Source: Escherichia coli 042 (GTDB lineage: Bacteria > Pseudomonadota > Gammaproteobacteria > Enterobacterales > Enterobacteriaceae). Taken from it: a stretch of DNA of 64,000 nucleotides. Location of the stretch: NCBI RefSeq assembly GCF_000027125.1, contig NC_017626.1; one strand, written 5' to 3'. This document shows, one piece after another, positions 35,122 to 62,839 of the stretch. A program made the position numbers and the translations under genes. Every line of letters begins with the position of its first letter. The first letter of the stretch is position 1. The notes beneath the pieces are model-generated. The model was not told where the DNA came from and searched no databases. It saw only the letters and a program-made list of their open reading frames with translations.

Positions 35122-37401
35122 TTACAGCGGTTGGGTTTGTGCTTCAACCACAGCCAGCGCCACCATGTTGACGATACGACGTACCGATGCGATCGGCGTT
35201 AACACGTGAACCGGTTTCGCCACGCCCATCAGCACCGGACCGACAGTCACACCTTCCGAGCTGGAAACGCGCAGTAAGTTGTAACTAATGCGGGCAGCTT
35301 CCATGTTCGGCATCACCAGAATATTAGCGGAACCTTTCAAAGGGCTGTCCGGCATACGGTCGCTGCGAATCGCTTCCACCAGCGCTGCATCGCCGTGCAT
35401 TTCACCATCAATCATCAGTTCTGGTGCACGTTCCCTGACCAGTTCCAGCGCCTGACGCATTTTGCTCGACGACGGGCAGTCAGAAGAACCAAAGTTGGAG
35501 TGCGACAACAGAGCCACGCGCGGTTCAATACCGAAACGACGAACAGTTTCTGCCGCCATCAAGGTGATCTCCGCCAGCTCTTCTGCGTCTGGTTCGTCAT
35601 TGACGTAGGTATCGGCAATAAAGGTGTTACCACTCGGCAGCAGCAGCGCGTTCATGGCACCTGCGGTGTGAACGCCATCGCGATAACCAAAGACATTTTT
35701 CACCACGCTAAAATGTTCATGATAATCGCCCACCGTACCGCAGATCATTGCATCGGCTTCGCCACGCTGAACCATGATCGCGCCAATCACTGTCGGGTTA
35801 CTGATCAATGCACGCTGCGCCTGTTCCTGAGTGACACCACGACGCTTCATGATCTGGAAGTATTCGGTCCAGTACTCTTTAAAGCGCGGATCGGATTCGT
35901 TATTGACGATCTCAAAATCAACACCCGCTTTGATCTGCAAGCCCAGTTTCTGAATGCGCATTTCGATCACATTCGGACGACCGATAAGGATCGGTTTCGC
36001 CAGCCCCAGTGTTACCAGTTCCTGAGTGGCATGCAGAACGCGCGCCTCTTCCCCTTCCGGCAGAACGACGCGCTTCGGCGCTTTGCGAGCCTGGGAGAAA
36101 ATCGGCTTCATAAACAGGTTGGTTTTGTAAACGAACTCCGTCAGCTTGTCGATGTAGACGTCGAAATCAGCAATCGGACGCGTCGCCACGCCCGACTCCA
36201 TCGCGGCTTTAGCGACCGCAGGAGCGATCTTAACGATCAAGCGCGGATCAAACGGTTTTGGAATGATGTATTCCGGACCAAAGCTCAGATCCTGATCGCC
36301 ATAAGCTGAAGCCACCACTTCACTCTGTTCCGCATGGGCCAATTCTGCAATCGCGCGTACCGCCGCCAGTTTCATCTCTTCGTTGATGGCGGTTGCGCCA
36401 ACGTCCAGCGCGCCACGGAAGATGAACGGGAAGCAAAGGACGTTGTTCACCTGGTTCGGGTAGTCGGAACGGCCGGTACAGATGATGGCATCCGGACGCA
36501 CTTCTTTCGCCAGCGGCGGCAGAATTTCCGGTTCCGGGTTCGCCAGCGCCAGGATCATTGGCGCTCGAGCCATTTTCTTCACCATTTCCTGGGTCAGCAC
36601 TTTCGGGCCGGAACATCCCAGGAAAATATCCGCGCCTTCAATCACATCATCGAGGGTACGTTTGCCGTCATCCACCACCGCATATGCGGCTTTGGTTTCC
36701 GCCATGTTTGGTTCACGGCCCTGATAGATAACGCCTTTTGAATCGCAAACCACGATGTTATGTTTTTGCAGACCCAGCGCTACCAGCAGGTTCATACAGG
36801 CGATTGCTGCGGCACCCGCGCCGGAAACCACCATCCGCACGTCAGAGATGTTTTTCTCCACCACGCGCAAACCGTTGAGGATGGCGGCAGTGCTGATGAT
36901 TGCCGTGCCGTGCTGATCGTCGTGGAATACCGGAATATTCATCCGCTCGCGCAGTTTCTGTTCAATATAGAAACATTCTGGCGCTTTAATGTCTTCGAGG
37001 TTGATGCCGCCGAAGGTCGGTTCAAGCGCAGCGACGACTTCAATAAATTTGTCCGGGTCGAGTTCATCAACTTCAATGTCAAATACATCAATCCCGGCGA
37101 ATTTCTTAAACAGAACGCCCTTGCCTTCCATCACCGGTTTGCCCGCCAGCGCGCCAATGTTGCCTAACCCCAGCACCGCCGTACCGTTAGAGATCACCGC
37201 CACCAGGTTACCGCGCGCGGTATATTTGTAGGCTTTTAACGGGTCTTTTTCGATTTCAAGACAAGGTGCGGCAACGCCTGGTGAGTAGGCCAGCGCCAGA
37301 TCGCGCTGCGTTGCCAGAGGCTTGGTTGGAGAAACCTGGATTTTCCCTGGAACTGGAAATTCATGGAAATCAAGTGCACTTTGTTTTAACTGGTCATCCA
37401 T
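35122..37401 (-). CDS. maeB: NADP-dependent malic enzyme (malic enzyme domain fused to a PTA-like domain)
   Basis: 759-aa [32 protein letters not shown].... Confidence 0.96.
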
Positions 37402-42577: not shown

Positions 42578-44557
42578 TCAGTGAGATTTGACTGATTTTA
42601 CCCCCAGCCAGTCAATAATCCCCTGTGCCGCATGACGTCCTTCTGCCATTGCGGTAACCACCAGATCCGCACCTCGCACGGCGTCACCACCGGCGAAGAT
42701 TTTCGGATTCGTGGTCTGGTAACGGTACTGGCTTTCCACATCCGCGATGATGCGGCCCCATTTGTCTACCGTTACACCGTGCGACTCCAGCCACGGCATC
42801 CCGTGCGGATTGAAGCCAAACGCCATAATCACCGCGTCGGCTGGCATGACAAATTCACTGCCTTCCACCGGTACTGGACGCCGACGCCCCTGGGCATCCG
42901 GCTCGCCAAGACGCGTACGCAGGAAACGAATCCCGCAAACGTGACCTTGTTCATTCAGCTCAAGCGCCACCGGCTGGACGTTAAATTCGAAGTTGGCCCC
43001 CTCTTCGCGGGCGTTCTTCACCTCTTTCTTCGAGCCTGGCATGTTAGCTTCATCACGACGATAAGCGCAGGTGACGTTACTCGCGCCGTGGCGCAGCGCG
43101 GTACGCACACAGTCCATCGCGGTGTCGCCGCCGCCCAGTACCACGACGTTGAGTCCGGCGGTATTGATAAACGGCTCTTCCGGTAGCTCTTCGAGTCCCA
43201 TCACCTGTTTAGTGTTGGCGATGAGGAACGGCAGGGCGTCATAAACGCCCGGCGCATCTTCATTGGGTAAACCCGCTTTCATGGAACGGTAAGTGCCTAC
43301 GCCAACGAAGACCGCGTCGTATTGTTCCAAAAGCGAATCCAAAGAGACATCTTTACCCACTTCACAATTGAGTTCGAAGTGAATCCCCATCGCGCTGAAG
43401 ATTTCCCGACGGCGTGCCAGCAGGGATTTATCCAGTTTGAAAGAAGGAATGCCGAAAGTGAGCAAGCCACCAATTTCTGGATGGCGATCGTACACCGTCA
43501 CCGCCATGCCATTGCGGGTCAGAACATCCGCACAGGCCAGCCCTGCCGGACCTGCACCGATAATCGCCACCCGCTTGTCCACTTTGGTGACATGGCTTAA
43601 GTCAGGACGCCAACCTTTCGCCAACGCCTGATCTGAAATGTAGCGTTCAATGTTGCCGATAGTTACTGCACCGTGCTCATCGCGAATAGTACAGGCTCCT
43701 TCACACAAACGGTCTTGCGGACAAACGCGTCCGGTAATTTCCGGCAGGGTGTTGGTCTGGTGAGAAAGCTCGACGGCGGCGTCGATGTTTCCGGCTTTCA
43801 CCAGTTCAATCCACTGCGGAATATGGTTATGCAGCGGGCAGGTCCATTCACAAACGCTGTGCTCGCCGCATTTAAGGCAGCGCGAGGCTTCCCGTTGTGC
43901 CTGATCGGCACGGAATGGCAGATAAATTTCATCAAAACCGGTTTTGCGCGCTTCAATCGCCAGTTTGTCCGGCTCGCCACGCGCGGGCGTTGCCTGCATT
44001 TGCTCGACTTTACTCATTACCGGCATTTCTTGTGCCGCGGTACTGGCATGCCACGGTTGATGTTCCTGACGTGCGGTGCGCAGGCGGCGGGATTTCGCCA
44101 TGCCGGAGAGTGCGGCATCAGTGACCAGTTGCAGCGCGTCCGCCGGGCAATTCTCGACACAGGCAGGACCGTTTTCGCGCCCTGCACAAAGGTCGCATTT
44201 ATGCGCCGTGGCTTTTACTTTGCCCGCCGCGACGGGTGTCAGGACGATTTGCATCGTACCAAATGGACAGGCCACCACGCAGGATTTACAGCCAATACAC
44301 TTTTGCTGATTGACCTGAATGCTGTCATCAACGTGGCTGATTGCGCCATTAGGGCAGCTACGGGCGCAGGGCGCATCTTCGCAATGGTGACAGGTCACTG
44401 CACTACGTTGCTGCTGATGTTTGATAACCGTAATTCGGGGATGAAAATGGTGTTGGCTCAGGACATGTTGCTCATCATTGTGAGCCATGACACAGGCGAT
44501 TTCACAAGCATGACAACCCAGACATTGCTGACTGTTGGCCATAATAAAACGATTCAT
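42578..44557 (-). CDS. aegA: Fe-S cluster and FAD/NAD-binding oxidoreductase AegA
   Basis: 659-aa ORF with N-terminal ferredoxin-like Cys clusters and a GltD-like C-terminal domain. Confidence 0.93.
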   Translation of the reverse strand: MNRFIMANSQQCLGCHACEIACVMAHNDEQHVLSQHHFHPRITVIKHQQQRSAVTCHHCEDAPCARSCPNGAISHVDDSIQVNQQKCIGCKSCVVACPFGTMQIVLTPVAAGKVKATAHKCDLCAGRENGPACVENCPADALQLVTDAALSGMAKSRRLRTARQEHQPWHASTAAQEMPVMSKVEQMQATPARGEPDKLAIEARKTGFDEIYLPFRADQAQREASRCLKCGEHSVCEWTCPLHNHIPQWIELVKAGNIDAAVELSHQTNTLPEITGRVCPQDRLCEGACTIRDEHGAVTIGNIERYISDQALAKGWRPDLSHVTKVDKRVAIIGAGPAGLACADVLTRNGMAVTVYDRHPEIGGLLTFGIPSFKLDKSLLARRREIFSAMGIHFELNCEVGKDVSLDSLLEQYDAVFVGVGTYRSMKAGLPNEDAPGVYDALPFLIANTKQVMGLEELPEEPFINTAGLNVVVLGGGDTAMDCVRTALRHGASNVTCAYRRDEANMPGSKKEVKNAREEGANFEFNVQPVALELNEQGHVCGIRFLRTRLGEPDAQGRRRPVPVEGSEFVMPADAVIMAFGFNPHGMPWLESHGVTVDKWGRIIADVESQYRYQTTNPKIFAGGDAVRGADLVVTAMAEGRHAAQGIIDWLGVKSVKSH

Positions 44558-58908: not shown

Positions 58909-59481
58909 TTGACACTGTCATCGCAACATTATCTGGTGATCACTGCGTTGGGTGCCGATCGCCCTGGAATTGTGAACACCATCACCCGTCATGTCAGTAG
59001 TTGCGGCTGTAATATTGAAGACAGTCGCCTGGCGATGCTGGGAGAAGAGTTCACGTTTATTATGCTGCTTTCCGGTTCATGGAATGCCATTACTCTGATT
59101 GAATCAACGTTACCGTTGAAAGGTGCCGAACTGGATCTTTTAATCGTGATGAAGCGCACGACGGCGCGTCCGCGTCCGCCAATGCCAGCATCTGTCTGGG
59201 TTCAGGTCGATGTGGCAGACTCCCCGCATTTAATTGAACGCTTCACAGCACTTTTCGACGCGCATCATATGAACATTGCGGAGCTGGTGTCGCGCACGCA
59301 ACCTGCTGAAAATGAACGGGCTGCGCAGTTGCATATTCAGATAACCGCCCACAGCCCCGCATCTGCGGACGCAGCAAATATTGAGCAAGCATTCAAAGCC
59401 CTATGTACAGAACTCAATGCACAAGGCAGTATTAACGTCGTCAATTATTCCCAACATGATGAACAGGATGGAGTTAAGTAA
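58909..59481 (+). CDS. gcvR: Glycine cleavage system transcriptional repressor
   Basis: 190-aa product beginning (M)TLSSQHYLVITALGADRPGIVNT from a TTG codon preceded by aaggaataacca; the track ORF is extended upstream. Confidence 0.88.
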   Translation: MTLSSQHYLVITALGADRPGIVNTITRHVSSCGCNIEDSRLAMLGEEFTFIMLLSGSWNAITLIESTLPLKGAELDLLIVMKRTTARPRPPMPASVWVQVDVADSPHLIERFTALFDAHHMNIAELVSRTQPAENERAAQLHIQITAHSPASADAANIEQAFKALCTELNAQGSINVVNYSQHDEQDGVK

Positions 59482-59951
59482 TGAATCCACTGAAAGCCGG
59501 TGATATCGCACCGAAATTTAGCTTGCCGGATCAAGACGGAGAACAAGTTAATTTGACCGACTTCCAGGGACAGCGTGTTCTGGTTTATTTCTACCCGAAA
59601 GCCATGACCCCCGGCTGTACCGTACAGGCCTGCGGCTTACGCGATAACATGGATGAGTTGAAAAAAGCGGGCGTTGATGTGCTGGGTATCAGCACCGATA
59701 AACCCGAAAAACTCTCCCGTTTTGCGGAAAAAGAGCTGCTTAACTTTACGCTCCTGTCTGATGAGGACCACCAGGTGTGCGAACAATTCGGCGTCTGGGG
59801 TGAAAAGTCCTTCATGGGCAAAACCTACGATGGTATTCATCGCATCAGCTTCCTGATTGACGCTGATGGCAAAATCGAACATGTCTTTGACGATTTCAAA
59901 ACCAGCAATCACCACGACGTTGTGCTGAACTGGCTGAAAGAACACGCCTGA
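59481..59951 (+). CDS. bcp: Thiol peroxidase Bcp (peroxiredoxin)
   Basis: 156-aa ORF with peroxidatic Cys context (PKAMTPGCTVQAC); start overlaps the gcvR stop. Confidence 0.95.
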   Translation: MNPLKAGDIAPKFSLPDQDGEQVNLTDFQGQRVLVYFYPKAMTPGCTVQACGLRDNMDELKKAGVDVLGISTDKPEKLSRFAEKELLNFTLLSDEDHQVCEQFGVWGEKSFMGKTYDGIHRISFLIDADGKIEHVFDDFKTSNHHDVVLNWLKEHA

Positions 59952-60146
59952 TTACTTTGCTCCATTCCGTGCTGGCTGCGCTTGCGGTCAGCACACCTCA
60001 CTTCTCGTGATCAAGATCACATTCTCGCTTTCCCCTGCGACACAGGTGTCGAATTCATTTTTTGCTGAACGTTAATGACCATCATTTTTGTACCGTTCAG
60101 AATCCAGTTAACACATAACTTATTGAATATATTAAATTAATCAGAC

Positions 60147-60162
60147 TGGCATCCTTTATGCA
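60147..60162 (+). promoter_or_regulatory. Sigma54 (-24/-12) promoter of the hyf operon
   Basis: TGGCAT-N5-ATGCA with GG and GC correctly spaced, about 40 bp upstream of hyfA. Confidence 0.5.
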
Positions 60163-60203
60163 ATATGAAATGCAATGTTTCATATCATTTTCAAGGAGCC
60201 GAC

Positions 60204-60821
60204 ATGAACCGCTTTGTGGTGGCCGAACCACTGTGGTGTACAGGATGTAATACCTGTCTCGCTGCCTGTTCGGACGTGCATAAAACGCAAGGTTTACAGC
60301 AACACCCGCGCCTGGCCCTGGCGAAGACGTCAACACTCACTGCCCCTGTCGTGTGTCATCACTGTGAGGAAGCCCCTTGCCTGCAGGTCTGCCCGGTCAA
60401 TGCCATCTCCCAGAGGGATGATGCGATCCAACTCAACGAAAGCCTCTGTATTGGCTGCAAGCTTTGTGCCGTGGTCTGCCCATTTGGCGCAATCAGCGCT
60501 TCAGGAAGCCGTCCGGTGAATGCCCCTGCGCAATATGTTTTTCAGGCTTTGGGCTCACTCAAAGACGGCGAAGAAAACGTGTCGACCCAACATGCTTTGC
60601 TGCGCTGGGAACCGGGTGTCCAGACCGTCGCGGTGAAATGCGACCTGTGTGATTTCTTGCCAGAAGGTCCGGCCTGCGTTCGCGCTTGTCCGAATCAGGC
60701 GTTACGGCTGATCACCGACGATAGCCTGCAACGTCAGATGAAAGAAAAACAGCGCCTTGCCGCAAGCTGGTTTGCCAATGGCGGGGAGGATCCCCTTTCC
60801 CTCACTCAGGAGCAACGCTAA
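60204..60821 (+). CDS. hyfA: Hydrogenase-4 component A (4Fe-4S ferredoxin-type subunit)
   Basis: 205 aa from MNRFVVAEPLWCTGCNTCLAACSDVH with RBS (aaggagccgacATG) and several CxxCxxCxxxCP motifs. Confidence 0.93.
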   Translation: MNRFVVAEPLWCTGCNTCLAACSDVHKTQGLQQHPRLALAKTSTLTAPVVCHHCEEAPCLQVCPVNAISQRDDAIQLNESLCIGCKLCAVVCPFGAISASGSRPVNAPAQYVFQALGSLKDGEENVSTQHALLRWEPGVQTVAVKCDLCDFLPEGPACVRACPNQALRLITDDSLQRQMKEKQRLAASWFANGGEDPLSLTQEQR

Positions 60822-62839
60822 TGGATGCCCTGCAATTATTAACCTGGTCGCTGATCCTCTATCTGTTTGCCAGTCTGGCTTCGCTGTTTTTACTCGGTCT
60901 GGACAGACTGGCTATTAAGCTTTCCGGCATCACATCGCTGGTGGGTGGCGTGATTGGCATCATCAGCGGAATTACGCAATTACATGCAGGCGTAACTTTA
61001 GTCGCCCGTTTTGCCACGCCTTTTGACTTTGCCGATTTAACCCTGCGAATGGATAGCCTCTCGGCATTTATGGTGCTGGTTATCTCCTTGCTGGTGGTGG
61101 TTTGTTCGCTCTATTCATTGACTTATATGCGCGAATACGAGGGCAAAGGCGCGGCGGCGATGGGCTTCTTTATGAATCTTTTCATCGCATCGATGGTTGC
61201 CCTGCTGGTGATGGACAACGCTTTTTGGTTCATCGTGCTGTTTGAAATGATGTCGCTGTCTTCCTGGTTTCTGGTCATTGCCAGGCAGGATAAAACGTCA
61301 ATCAACGCTGGCATGCTCTACTTTTTTATCGCCCACGCCGGATCGGTGCTGATTATGATCGCCTTCTTGCTGATGTGGCGCGAAAGCGGCAGCCTCGATT
61401 TTGCCAGTTTCCGCACGCTTTCACTTTCTCCGGGGCTGGCGTCGGCGGTGTTCCTGCTGGCCTTCTTCGGTTTTGGCGCGAAAGCCGGGATGATGCCGTT
61501 GCACAGCTGGTTGCCACGCGCTCACCCTGCCGCACCATCGCACGCTTCGGCGTTGATGTCTGGCGTAATGGTCAAAATCGGTATTTTCGGCATCCTGAAA
61601 GTAGCGATGGACCTGCTGGCGCAAACGGGTTTGCCGCTGTGGTGGGGCATTCTGGTGATGGCGATCGGCGCAATCTCCGCGCTCCTGGGCGTGCTGTATG
61701 CGCTGGCGGAACAGGATATCAAACGGCTGCTGGCCTGGAGTACCGTCGAAAACGTCGGCATTATTTTGCTGGCGGTCGGTGTGGCGATGGTCGGTCTGTC
61801 ACTGCACGACCCGCTGCTCACCGTTGTTGGACTGCTCGGCGCGCTGTTTCATCTGCTCAACCATGCGCTGTTCAAAGGGCTGCTGTTTCTCGGCGCGGGT
61901 GCGATTATTTCGCGTTTGCATACCCACGACATGGAAAAAATGGGGGCACTGGCGAAACGGATGCCGTGGACAGCCGCAGCATGCCTGATTGGTTGCCTCG
62001 CGATATCAGCCATTCCTCCGCTGAATGGTTTTATCAGCGAATGGTACACCTGGCAGTCGCTGTTCTCACTAAGTCGTGTGGAAGCCGTAGCGCTACAACT
62101 TGCGGGTCCTATTGCTATGGTAATGCTGGCAGTCACTGGTGGGCTGGCAGTAATGTGCTTCGTAAAAATGTACGGTATTACTTTCTGTGGTGCGCCGCGC
62201 AGTACACACGCTGAAGAGGCACAGGAAGTGCCAAATACGATGATCGTCGCCATGCTACTGCTCGCGGCACTCTGCGTATTCATTGCGCTTAGTGCCAGTT
62301 GGCTGGCACCGAAGATAATGCATATTGCCCATGCGTTTACCAATACCCCTCCCGTCACTGTCGCCAGCGGAATAGCACTTGTACCCGGCACGTTTCATAC
62401 ACGGGTCACTCCCTCATTACTGTTGCTGTTACTACTGGCGATGCCTTTGCTGCCTGGCCTTTACTGGCTGTGGTGTCGTTCGCGCCGCGCAGCGTTTCGT
62501 CGCACAGGAGATGCCTGGGCATGCGGCTACGGCTGGGAAAATGCGATGGCCCCGTCAGGCAATGGCGTGATGCAGCCGCTGCGTGTGGTCTTTTGTGCGC
62601 TATTTCGTCTACGACAACAGCTCGACCCTACGCTGAGGCTAAATAAAGGTCTTGCGCACGTCACAGCCAGGGCTCAGAGCACAGAACCCTTCTGGGATGA
62701 GCGGGTGATCCGCCCCATCGTGAGCGTCACCCAACGGCTGGCCAAAGAAATACAGCATCTGCAAAGCGGCGACTTTCGTCTCTATTGCCTGTATGTGGTT
62801 GCCGCACTGGTTGTGCTGCTAATCGCTATTGCCGTCTAA
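60821..62839 (+). CDS. hyfB: Hydrogenase-4 membrane subunit B (NuoL/MnhA-like antiporter subunit)
   Basis: 672-aa polytopic membrane ORF. Confidence 0.93.
   Translation: MDALQLLTWSLILYLFASLASLFLLGLDRLAIKLSGITSLVGGVIGIISGITQLHAGVTLVARFATPFDFADLTLRMDSLSAFMVLVISLLVVVCSLYSLTYMREYEGKGAAAMGFFMNLFIASMVALLVMDNAFWFIVLFEMMSLSSWFLVIARQDKTSINAGMLYFFIAHAGSVLIMIAFLLMWRESGSLDFASFRTLSLSPGLASAVFLLAFFGFGAKAGMMPLHSWLPRAHPAAPSHASALMSGVMVKIGIFGILKVAMDLLAQTGLPLWWGILVMAIGAISALLGVLYALAEQDIKRLLAWSTVENVGIILLAVGVAMVGLSLHDPLLTVVGLLGALFHLLNHALFKGLLFLGAGAIISRLHTHDMEKMGALAKRMPWTAAACLIGCLAISAIPPLNGFISEWYTWQSLFSLSRVEAVALQLAGPIAMVMLAVTGGLAVMCFVKMYGITFCGAPRSTHAEEAQEVPNTMIVAMLLLAALCVFIALSASWLAPKIMHIAHAFTNTPPVTVASGIALVPGTFHTRVTPSLLLLLLLAMPLLPGLYWLWCRSRRAAFRRTGDAWACGYGWENAMAPSGNGVMQPLRVVFCALFRLRQQLDPTLRLNKGLAHVTARAQSTEPFWDERVIRPIVSVTQRLAKEIQHLQSGDFRLYCLYVVAALVVLLIAIAV

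Follow-up and report, generated by a model that had tools for sequence, protein, structure and literature searches.

The bcp–hyfA spacer of Escherichia coli 042: a sigma-54 promoter, a cAMP-CRP site and a putative FhlA/HyfR enhancer in the control region of hydrogenase-4

Introduction

The closest described counterpart of the region analysed here is the hyfA promoter of Escherichia coli K-12, hyfAp, which is documented in EcoCyc/RegulonDB. In a sigma-54 ChIP-seq study the site OS23 (ATGGCATCCTTTATGCA, FAT 16) was assigned to hyfA, flagged as 'experimentally Confirmed in EcoCyc' and given a predicted start 31 nt before the gene (Bonocora et al., 2015). In gSELEX with the RpoN holoenzyme and NtrC, the bcp/hyfA spacer was the top peak of the K-12 genome, and with the holoenzyme alone it reached 92% of the top peak (Shimada et al., 2021). 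Entries for hyfA are also found in published tables on two other regulators. In ETEC H10407, CGTGATCAAGATCACA is a high-confidence CRP ChIP-seq site for hyfA (Haycocks et al., 2015, Table 1), and hyfA is a listed known cAMP-CRP target that was recovered by genomic SELEX (2011). Exactly GTGATCAAGATCAC, at position 2599026 of MG1655 near hyfA, is a predicted FNR site (Myers et al., 2013, Table S6).

Further related systems are the FhlA-dependent promoters of hyc, hyp, fdhF and hydN, which share with hyf a YGWCR array, an IHF-like box and a −24/−12 element. For the sigma-54 class of promoters, the closed complex, DNA looping and ATP-driven opening are established. Expression of hyf is reportedly dependent on sigma-54, FhlA and HyfR, and HyfR is said to bind the hyf control region. 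In addition, cAMP-CRP is reportedly needed for optimal expression of a hyf-lacZ fusion. Laboratory E. coli hardly expresses the hyf operon. At two other sigma-54 promoters, glnAp2 and dctA, CRP has been reported to be inhibitory. CRP and FNR recognise related half-sites, and a single G/T position within the half-site discriminates CRP (GTGA) from FNR (TTGA).

Here, we describe the bcp–hyfA spacer in a window of E. coli 042 (contig NC_017626.1), i.e. the whole stretch of 64,000 nucleotides that was analysed, and compare it with these systems. An earlier note on this DNA, made from the sequence alone, had drawn attention to a sigma-54 element and to an upstream dyad in the spacer.

Materials & Methods

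Candidate sites were scored with three matrices. The RpoN matrix (186 sites) and the FhlA matrix (13 sites) were both taken from PMC7658346. The CRP matrix was symmetrised and was built from the 105 other ChIP sites of the Haycocks table, with the hyfA site and a near-twin of it excluded; the strain of that CRP ChIP-seq study is ETEC H10407 and not the strain of the window. For the comparison between species, GTDB species-representative genomes were scanned for HyfA, which yielded 45 loci, and the upstream region of each locus was anchored on its best match to the RpoN matrix.

Results

The locus and its spacer

In a database comparison, positions 59400–60900 of the window matched complete E. 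coli genomes with an identity of 98.3–99.9%, and for the locus as a whole the identity to annotated E. coli chromosomes is 98-100%. The annotation of the matching complete genomes reads, in order, gcvR, bcp, hyfA and hyfB. The region under study is exactly the 253-bp spacer between bcp and hyfA, which is the known control region of the hydrogenase-4 operon hyfABCDEFGHIJR-focB. Its borders, and a first element next to bcp, are as follows.

59949-59951: stop codon of bcp, which ends at 59951
60204: ATG start codon of hyfA
59969-59994, plus strand: GC-rich hairpin after the bcp stop codon and upstream of the control elements (inverted repeat; RNA fold)

The spacer of K-12 differs from that of the window by strain-level changes only, namely 8 substitutions in 253 bp. 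The core motif bases are untouched, as 0/8 differences fall within the −24/−12 core, the CRP dyad or the half-sites of the upstream activating sequence (UAS) that are described below. One substitution lies directly 5' of TGGCA (C in the window, A in K-12) and another at the centre of the putative UAS (A in the window, G in K-12).

The hairpin at 59969–59994 has a predicted folding energy of −20.2 kcal/mol (z = −4.27), and 0/200 shuffled sequences fold equally well. It is not followed by a T-run, and a terminator scan of the region made no call there. In strains that lack hyf, the hairpin is kept between the convergent genes bcp and yfgO. It is probably the bcp terminator or a 3'-end structure of bcp. 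A search of the spacer for structured RNA in Rfam returned 0 families at E ≤ 1.

The sigma-54 promoter hyfAp

Two features at the downstream end of the spacer concern the start of hyf transcription.

60147-60162, plus strand: sigma-54 promoter hyfAp, TGGCAT-CCTTT-ATGCA (pattern, matrix, published ChIP-seq and gSELEX)
60173-60203, plus strand: predicted transcription start at 60173 and 31-nt leader with the ribosome-binding site AAGGAG, followed by the ATG at 60204

The GG doublet of the −24 element (60148-9) and the GC doublet of the −12 element (60160-1) are 10 nt apart, within a TGGCAC-N5-TTGCW type of context, and face hyfA. The pattern TGGCAY-N5-WTGCW has 2 occurrences in the 64-kb window, compared to 0.54 expected, and hyfAp scores 12.0 bits on the RpoN matrix, which places it at rank 7 of ~128,000 window positions. 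Judged by its sequence alone, hyfAp is suggestive, being neither unique nor decisive. The K-12 promoter recovered as OS23 has the same −24/−12 16-mer, the same 31-nt start distance and the same flanking genes as the promoter in the window, and in an 8-sequence alignment TGGCA...TT.TGC is invariant in the orthologous promoters. The GC at −12 puts +1 at 60173, in agreement with the predicted 31-nt distance to the gene (Bonocora et al., 2015). We conclude that hyfAp is a genuine enhancer-dependent sigma-54 promoter. The earlier note had given the element TGGCAT-N5-ATGCA at 60147-60162 with the right sequence and coordinates, and its proposal of enhancer-dependent hyf expression is borne out by the OS23/EcoCyc listing and by gSELEX, which confirm the sigma-54 promoter.

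Some further sequence features were observed around the predicted start and elsewhere in the window. A direct repeat, ATGCAAT, occurs twice around the predicted start (60158 and 60170), an 8-bp inverted repeat (ATATGAAA/TTTCATAT, 60163-60185) spans it, and the hyfA leader contains a short AAYGTTT block that is conserved across genera. The window's best match to the RpoN matrix is CTGGCATTACTGTTGCA at 394-409 on the minus strand (15.5 bits); it corresponds to IA18, a sigma-54 ChIP-seq site that was published as intragenic and antisense within cysK (Bonocora et al., 2015). A second antisense match, CGGCACAAAGCTTGCA, lies within hyfA (60456-60471, minus strand) and scores above hyfAp with 15.1 bits; it is absent from the main-text tables of Bonocora et al. 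(2015).

The upstream dyad is a cAMP-CRP site

Further upstream, the spacer carries the following site.

60006-60021, no strand assigned: cAMP-CRP site cGTGA-TCAAGA-TCACA (consensus, matrix, published ChIP-seq and gSELEX, orthologues)

This 16-mer contains GTGATCAAGATCAC (60007–60020), which lies 140 nt upstream of the sigma-54 element. The earlier note had reported this 14-mer with correct sequence and coordinates (~140 bp upstream), and had described it as a perfect palindrome and as not a recognised site. The first description has to be corrected: the reverse complement of GTGATCAAGATCAC is GTGATCTTGATCAC, and the 14-mer is not perfectly palindromic but consists of perfect 6-bp inverted arms, GTGATC/GATCAC, that flank a non-symmetric AA. 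The second does not hold either, as the dyad already stands in published CRP and FNR tables.

The dyad pattern occurs once in the 64-kb window (0.14 expected). The 16-mer matches the TGTGA-N6-TCACA core at 9/10 positions and scores 18.68 bits on the CRP matrix. It is the best position of the window, 5 bits clear of the next, and its score exceeds 97% of the 106 published sites scored alongside and was reached by 0/2000 shuffles of the spacer. It is identical to the hyfA site of the Haycocks table (CGTGATCAAGATCACA), without any difference in sequence and with the same downstream gene. Thus, the dyad at 60006–60021 is a recognised cAMP-CRP site that is occupied by CRP according to published ChIP-seq. 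An alternative role of the dyad as an RNA hairpin was rejected (−3.9 kcal/mol, z = −1.0).

The site is unusual in its position. Its centre, 60013.5, corresponds to about −159.5 from the predicted start, which is atypical for CRP sites that usually centre near −40.5 or −92.5. Class I and class II CRP sites belong to sigma-70 promoters, whereas the hyf site is located at ~−160 of a sigma-54 promoter. When the literature was searched for papers stating outright that hyf depends on CRP, only mentions in reference lists turned up.

Loci collinear with that of E. coli were found in Citrobacter amalonaticus, three other Citrobacter and two Kosakonia species, and in these collinear loci bcp is directly upstream of hyfA. 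Escherichia relatives were represented by 0 loci in the scan of GTDB species representatives, the footprint of which consists of Citrobacter and Kosakonia; we assume that the E. coli representative lacks hyf. The orthologous CRP sites (TGTGATCGCAATCACA, TGTGACTAATATCACA and TTTGACCGCGATCACA) are located 139-141 nt upstream of the −24 TGG. The sites TGTGA-TCGCAA-TCACA, TGTGA-CTAATA-TCACA and TTTGA-CCGCGA-TCACA score 18.7, 17.1 and 15.8 bits, respectively. The half-sites are kept and the N6 centre is free to vary, a pattern of conservation that matches what would be expected of a CRP site. In more distant hyf/hyc-type loci scored with the CRP matrix, a comparable site is absent.

CRP sites were also noted at other loci. 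Within the window, TGTGAGCCATGACACA (44479-44494) is identical to a published ETEC CRP ChIP-seq site assigned to (aegA)/narQ. Outside the window, fdhF, which is FhlA- and sigma-54-dependent, carries like hyf a CRP ChIP-seq site, CGTGATGGCTGTCACG, upstream of the gene in ETEC H10407. The fdhF site hints that CRP input at formate-hydrogenlyase promoters is not unique to hyf.

FNR at the dyad

The earlier note had compared the half-sites of the dyad with those of FNR and CRP and had suggested anaerobic tuning of hyf. The assignment to the CRP/FNR family was correct, and within this family the evidence assigns the dyad to CRP and not to FNR. That the dyad is an FNR site giving direct anaerobic activation of hyf is very unlikely. 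GTGATCAAGATCAC does pass the published FNR matrix threshold (PatSer 13.04, ln p −11.53) and hyfA is one of five silent sites for which earlier work gives some indication of control by FNR, but an FNR ChIP-seq peak is absent at the hyfA site (Myers et al., 2013, Table S6). With the FNR site TTGAT-N4-ATCAA the dyad has its spacing in common and 8/10 core bases match; however, the discriminating base at the start of each half-site is G instead of T (GTGA vs TTGA), which accounts for both of the 2 mismatches, and FNR occupancy is not seen in vivo. In motif scans of the kind that the earlier note had proposed, the dyad is the best position of the window on the CRP matrix and is not recovered with the FNR consensus at ≤1 mismatch. 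In the Kosakonia orthologue the left half is TTTGA, which is in favour of FNR. Other GTGA..TCAC entries of the Myers table are mostly peakless as well (ycfQ/bhsA, tppB, flhD and yncI). One such entry, ppiA/tsgA, does have an FNR peak. Both the ycfQ/bhsA and the ppiA/tsgA sites double as CRP ChIP-seq sites, and the hyfA site is itself occupied by CRP in vivo as determined by published ChIP-seq. The earlier proposal of anaerobic (FNR) tuning via the dyad is therefore not supported, given the absent FNR peak and the GTGA-type half-sites.

A different 14-mer in the window, TTCATGGAAATCAA (37360-37373, within maeB/talA), is also listed as a predicted yet unoccupied FNR site (Myers et al., 2013, Table S6).

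A putative FhlA/HyfR enhancer next to the CRP site

Between the CRP site and the promoter, a second dyad was identified.

60038-60051, no strand assigned: putative FhlA/HyfR enhancer (UAS) CGACA-CAGG-TGTCG (half-site pattern, conservation)

This element is centred near −128.5 relative to the predicted start, and the CRP centre lies 31 bp further upstream. It is the sole YGWCR-N4-YGWCR match within the spacer. Half-sites of the YGWCR type fill the FhlA-controlled hycA–hypA and hycA–hycB regions of K-12, and a motif of the YGWCR-N4-YGWCR type is present upstream of 22/42 hyfA homologues. Across the 8-sequence alignment, CGACAC..TG.CG is invariant. The distance between the CRP site and the UAS is equally constant, with no indel in 8/8 aligned sequences, and amounts to 31 bp from centre to centre, i.e. 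~three helical turns. On the published FhlA matrix the element scores only 6.2 bits, less than the CRP dyad (9.9 bits). From its pattern and conservation, 60038–60051 is most likely the HyfR/FhlA enhancer. The hyf arrangement differs from that of the remaining formate regulon in having one clear 5-4-5 dyad with a strong CRP site upstream of it at an unchanging distance of 31 bp; this combination was found only in the hyf group of E. coli, Citrobacter and Kosakonia. The earlier note was incomplete in this respect, as it had paired the CRP dyad, as the upstream element, with the sigma-54 promoter and had overlooked the likely enhancer.

A terminator at this second dyad, called by the terminator scan from CGACACAGGTGTCG and a T-run, was rejected because its stem is weak (−4.9 kcal/mol, z = −0.25) and because in the orthologues the bases of the half-sites persist without the pairing.

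It is highly improbable that the dyad at 60006–60021 is itself the FhlA/HyfR enhancer, as a second UAS and not a CRP site. The distance of the dyad from the sigma-54 promoter downstream of it would suit an enhancer, and within the spacer TGATCAAGATCACA is the best match of the FhlA matrix, with 9.9 bits and rank 33 among the ~128,000 window positions. This score was discounted for two reasons: the G-W-C core of YGWCR is broken in both halves of the dyad (TGATC and TCACA), and conservation among the orthologues follows the CRP bases, with TGTGA/TCACA retained and a variable centre, as is characteristic of CRP sites. Most of the 9.9 bits are contributed by non-core columns, namely those of the A/T-rich middle and of the two ends. 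Moreover, a proper YGWCR-N4-YGWCR site is located 31 bp from the dyad, and CRP ChIP-seq assigns the dyad to CRP.

Loss of the upstream sites together with hyf

In ~1,130/5,426 complete E. coli genomes bcp is kept and hyf–focB is missing, with bcp directly facing yfgO. The junction, as seen in one such strain, falls in a GCTGAA(G) microhomology (window 60065–60071), copies of which flank the hyf region on either side. In the upstream remnant that is retained there, the CRP site lacks its left half and the UAS is no longer symmetric. This loss fits with the CRP site and the UAS serving hyf and not bcp.

Other conserved blocks and a sigma-70 promoter in the spacer

Two more elements are located between the putative enhancer and hyfAp.

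60077-60092, no strand assigned: conserved block TGACCATCATTTTTGT (8-sequence alignment)
60117-60129, minus strand: IHF-like box TAACTTATTGAAT, complement of WATCAANNNNTTR with 1 mismatch, located downstream of the putative enhancer and upstream of hyfAp

In the block TGACCATCATTTTTGT, 15/16 positions are invariant in E. coli, Citrobacter and Kosakonia, the exception being 60086 (T vs C); in the form TGACCATCA[T/C]TTTTGT the block at 60077-60092 is invariant across the three genera. It may be bound by a second activator or by some other protein.

The box at 60117–60129 was read from the sequence as IHF-like by comparison with the IHF consensus. Its ..AAC....TGA.. columns are kept in the alignment and in more distant hyf loci. 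Enrichment of IHF in ChIP-chip, and of Fis, overlaps the predicted FNR site at hyfA (Myers et al., 2013, Table S6). The IHF enrichment thus coincides with 60007-60020, which is ~100 bp upstream of the IHF-like box.

An RpoD 'constitutive promoter' with the hexamers ATGACC-17-CAGAAT was listed in the bcp-hyfA spacer (Shimada et al., 2014); TGACCATCATTTTTGT overlaps its −35 hexamer, and its −10 hexamer is not conserved. It is extremely improbable that the CRP site serves this promoter (60076-60104) or bcp instead of the sigma-54 promoter: sigma-70 promoters are the usual targets of CRP activation and the hexamers are published, but a sigma-70 consensus scan of the region gave 0 sites, the −10 hexamer varies in Citrobacter and Kosakonia where the CRP site, the UAS and −24/−12 keep a fixed spacing, the CRP centre, at ~−98 from the RpoD promoter start, is out of phase with the usual class I positions by half a helical turn, the CRP site is downstream of bcp, and its left half-site is lost in strains with bcp and without hyf.

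Discussion

We consider it very probable that the spacer joins the sigma-54 promoter hyfAp to a HyfR/FhlA UAS, an IHF-like bend and catabolite control by CRP. In such an arrangement, sigma-54 RNA polymerase would be positioned on 60147-60162 as a closed complex, with transcription starting at ~60173. The ATP-hydrolysing activator HyfR, or its paralogue FhlA together with formate, would contact the polymerase by DNA looping and thereby lead to opening, and the enhancer from which it acts would be CGACA-N4-TGTCG at 60038-60051. IHF may bend the DNA at ~60117-60129, between the enhancer and the promoter, and in this way aid the loop. Finally, cAMP-CRP at ~−159.5, on the side of the helix that the enhancer also faces, would add catabolite control; instead of contacting the alpha-subunit of the polymerase, it might bend the DNA beside the activator or stabilise the activator. 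The sequence elements, the binding of sigma-54, that of CRP both in vivo and in vitro, the missing FNR ChIP-seq peak and the conserved sites and distances come from the present analysis or from published data. Three parts of the arrangement are inferred, namely HyfR/FhlA at 60038-60051, IHF at the named box and the bending or stabilising role of CRP.

A more specific role of CRP can be proposed only tentatively, and we regard it as rather unlikely. From ~−159.5, CRP might be a co-activator in fixed geometry of the enhancer and not of the polymerase, i.e. it might bend the DNA or contact the activator and so aid the assembly of the ATPase oligomer. If true, this would mean that CRP acts positively at a sigma-54 promoter, in contrast to the inhibition reported at glnAp2 and dctA. 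If, in addition, the FNR-like but unoccupied nature of the site is considered, the dyad could switch partners under other conditions.

The promoter, its sigma-54 dependence, the occupancy by CRP and the failed FNR prediction are already contained in published tables. The locus may serve as a calibration case for reading regulatory DNA from sequence only: the sequence-only reader found both real elements, confused CRP and FNR, and overlooked the enhancer.

The question that remains is what CRP contributes from ~−160, in phase with the enhancer, at a sigma-54 promoter. It touches on an old puzzle, namely under which circumstances hydrogenase-4 is produced, which the present finding does not make newly testable.
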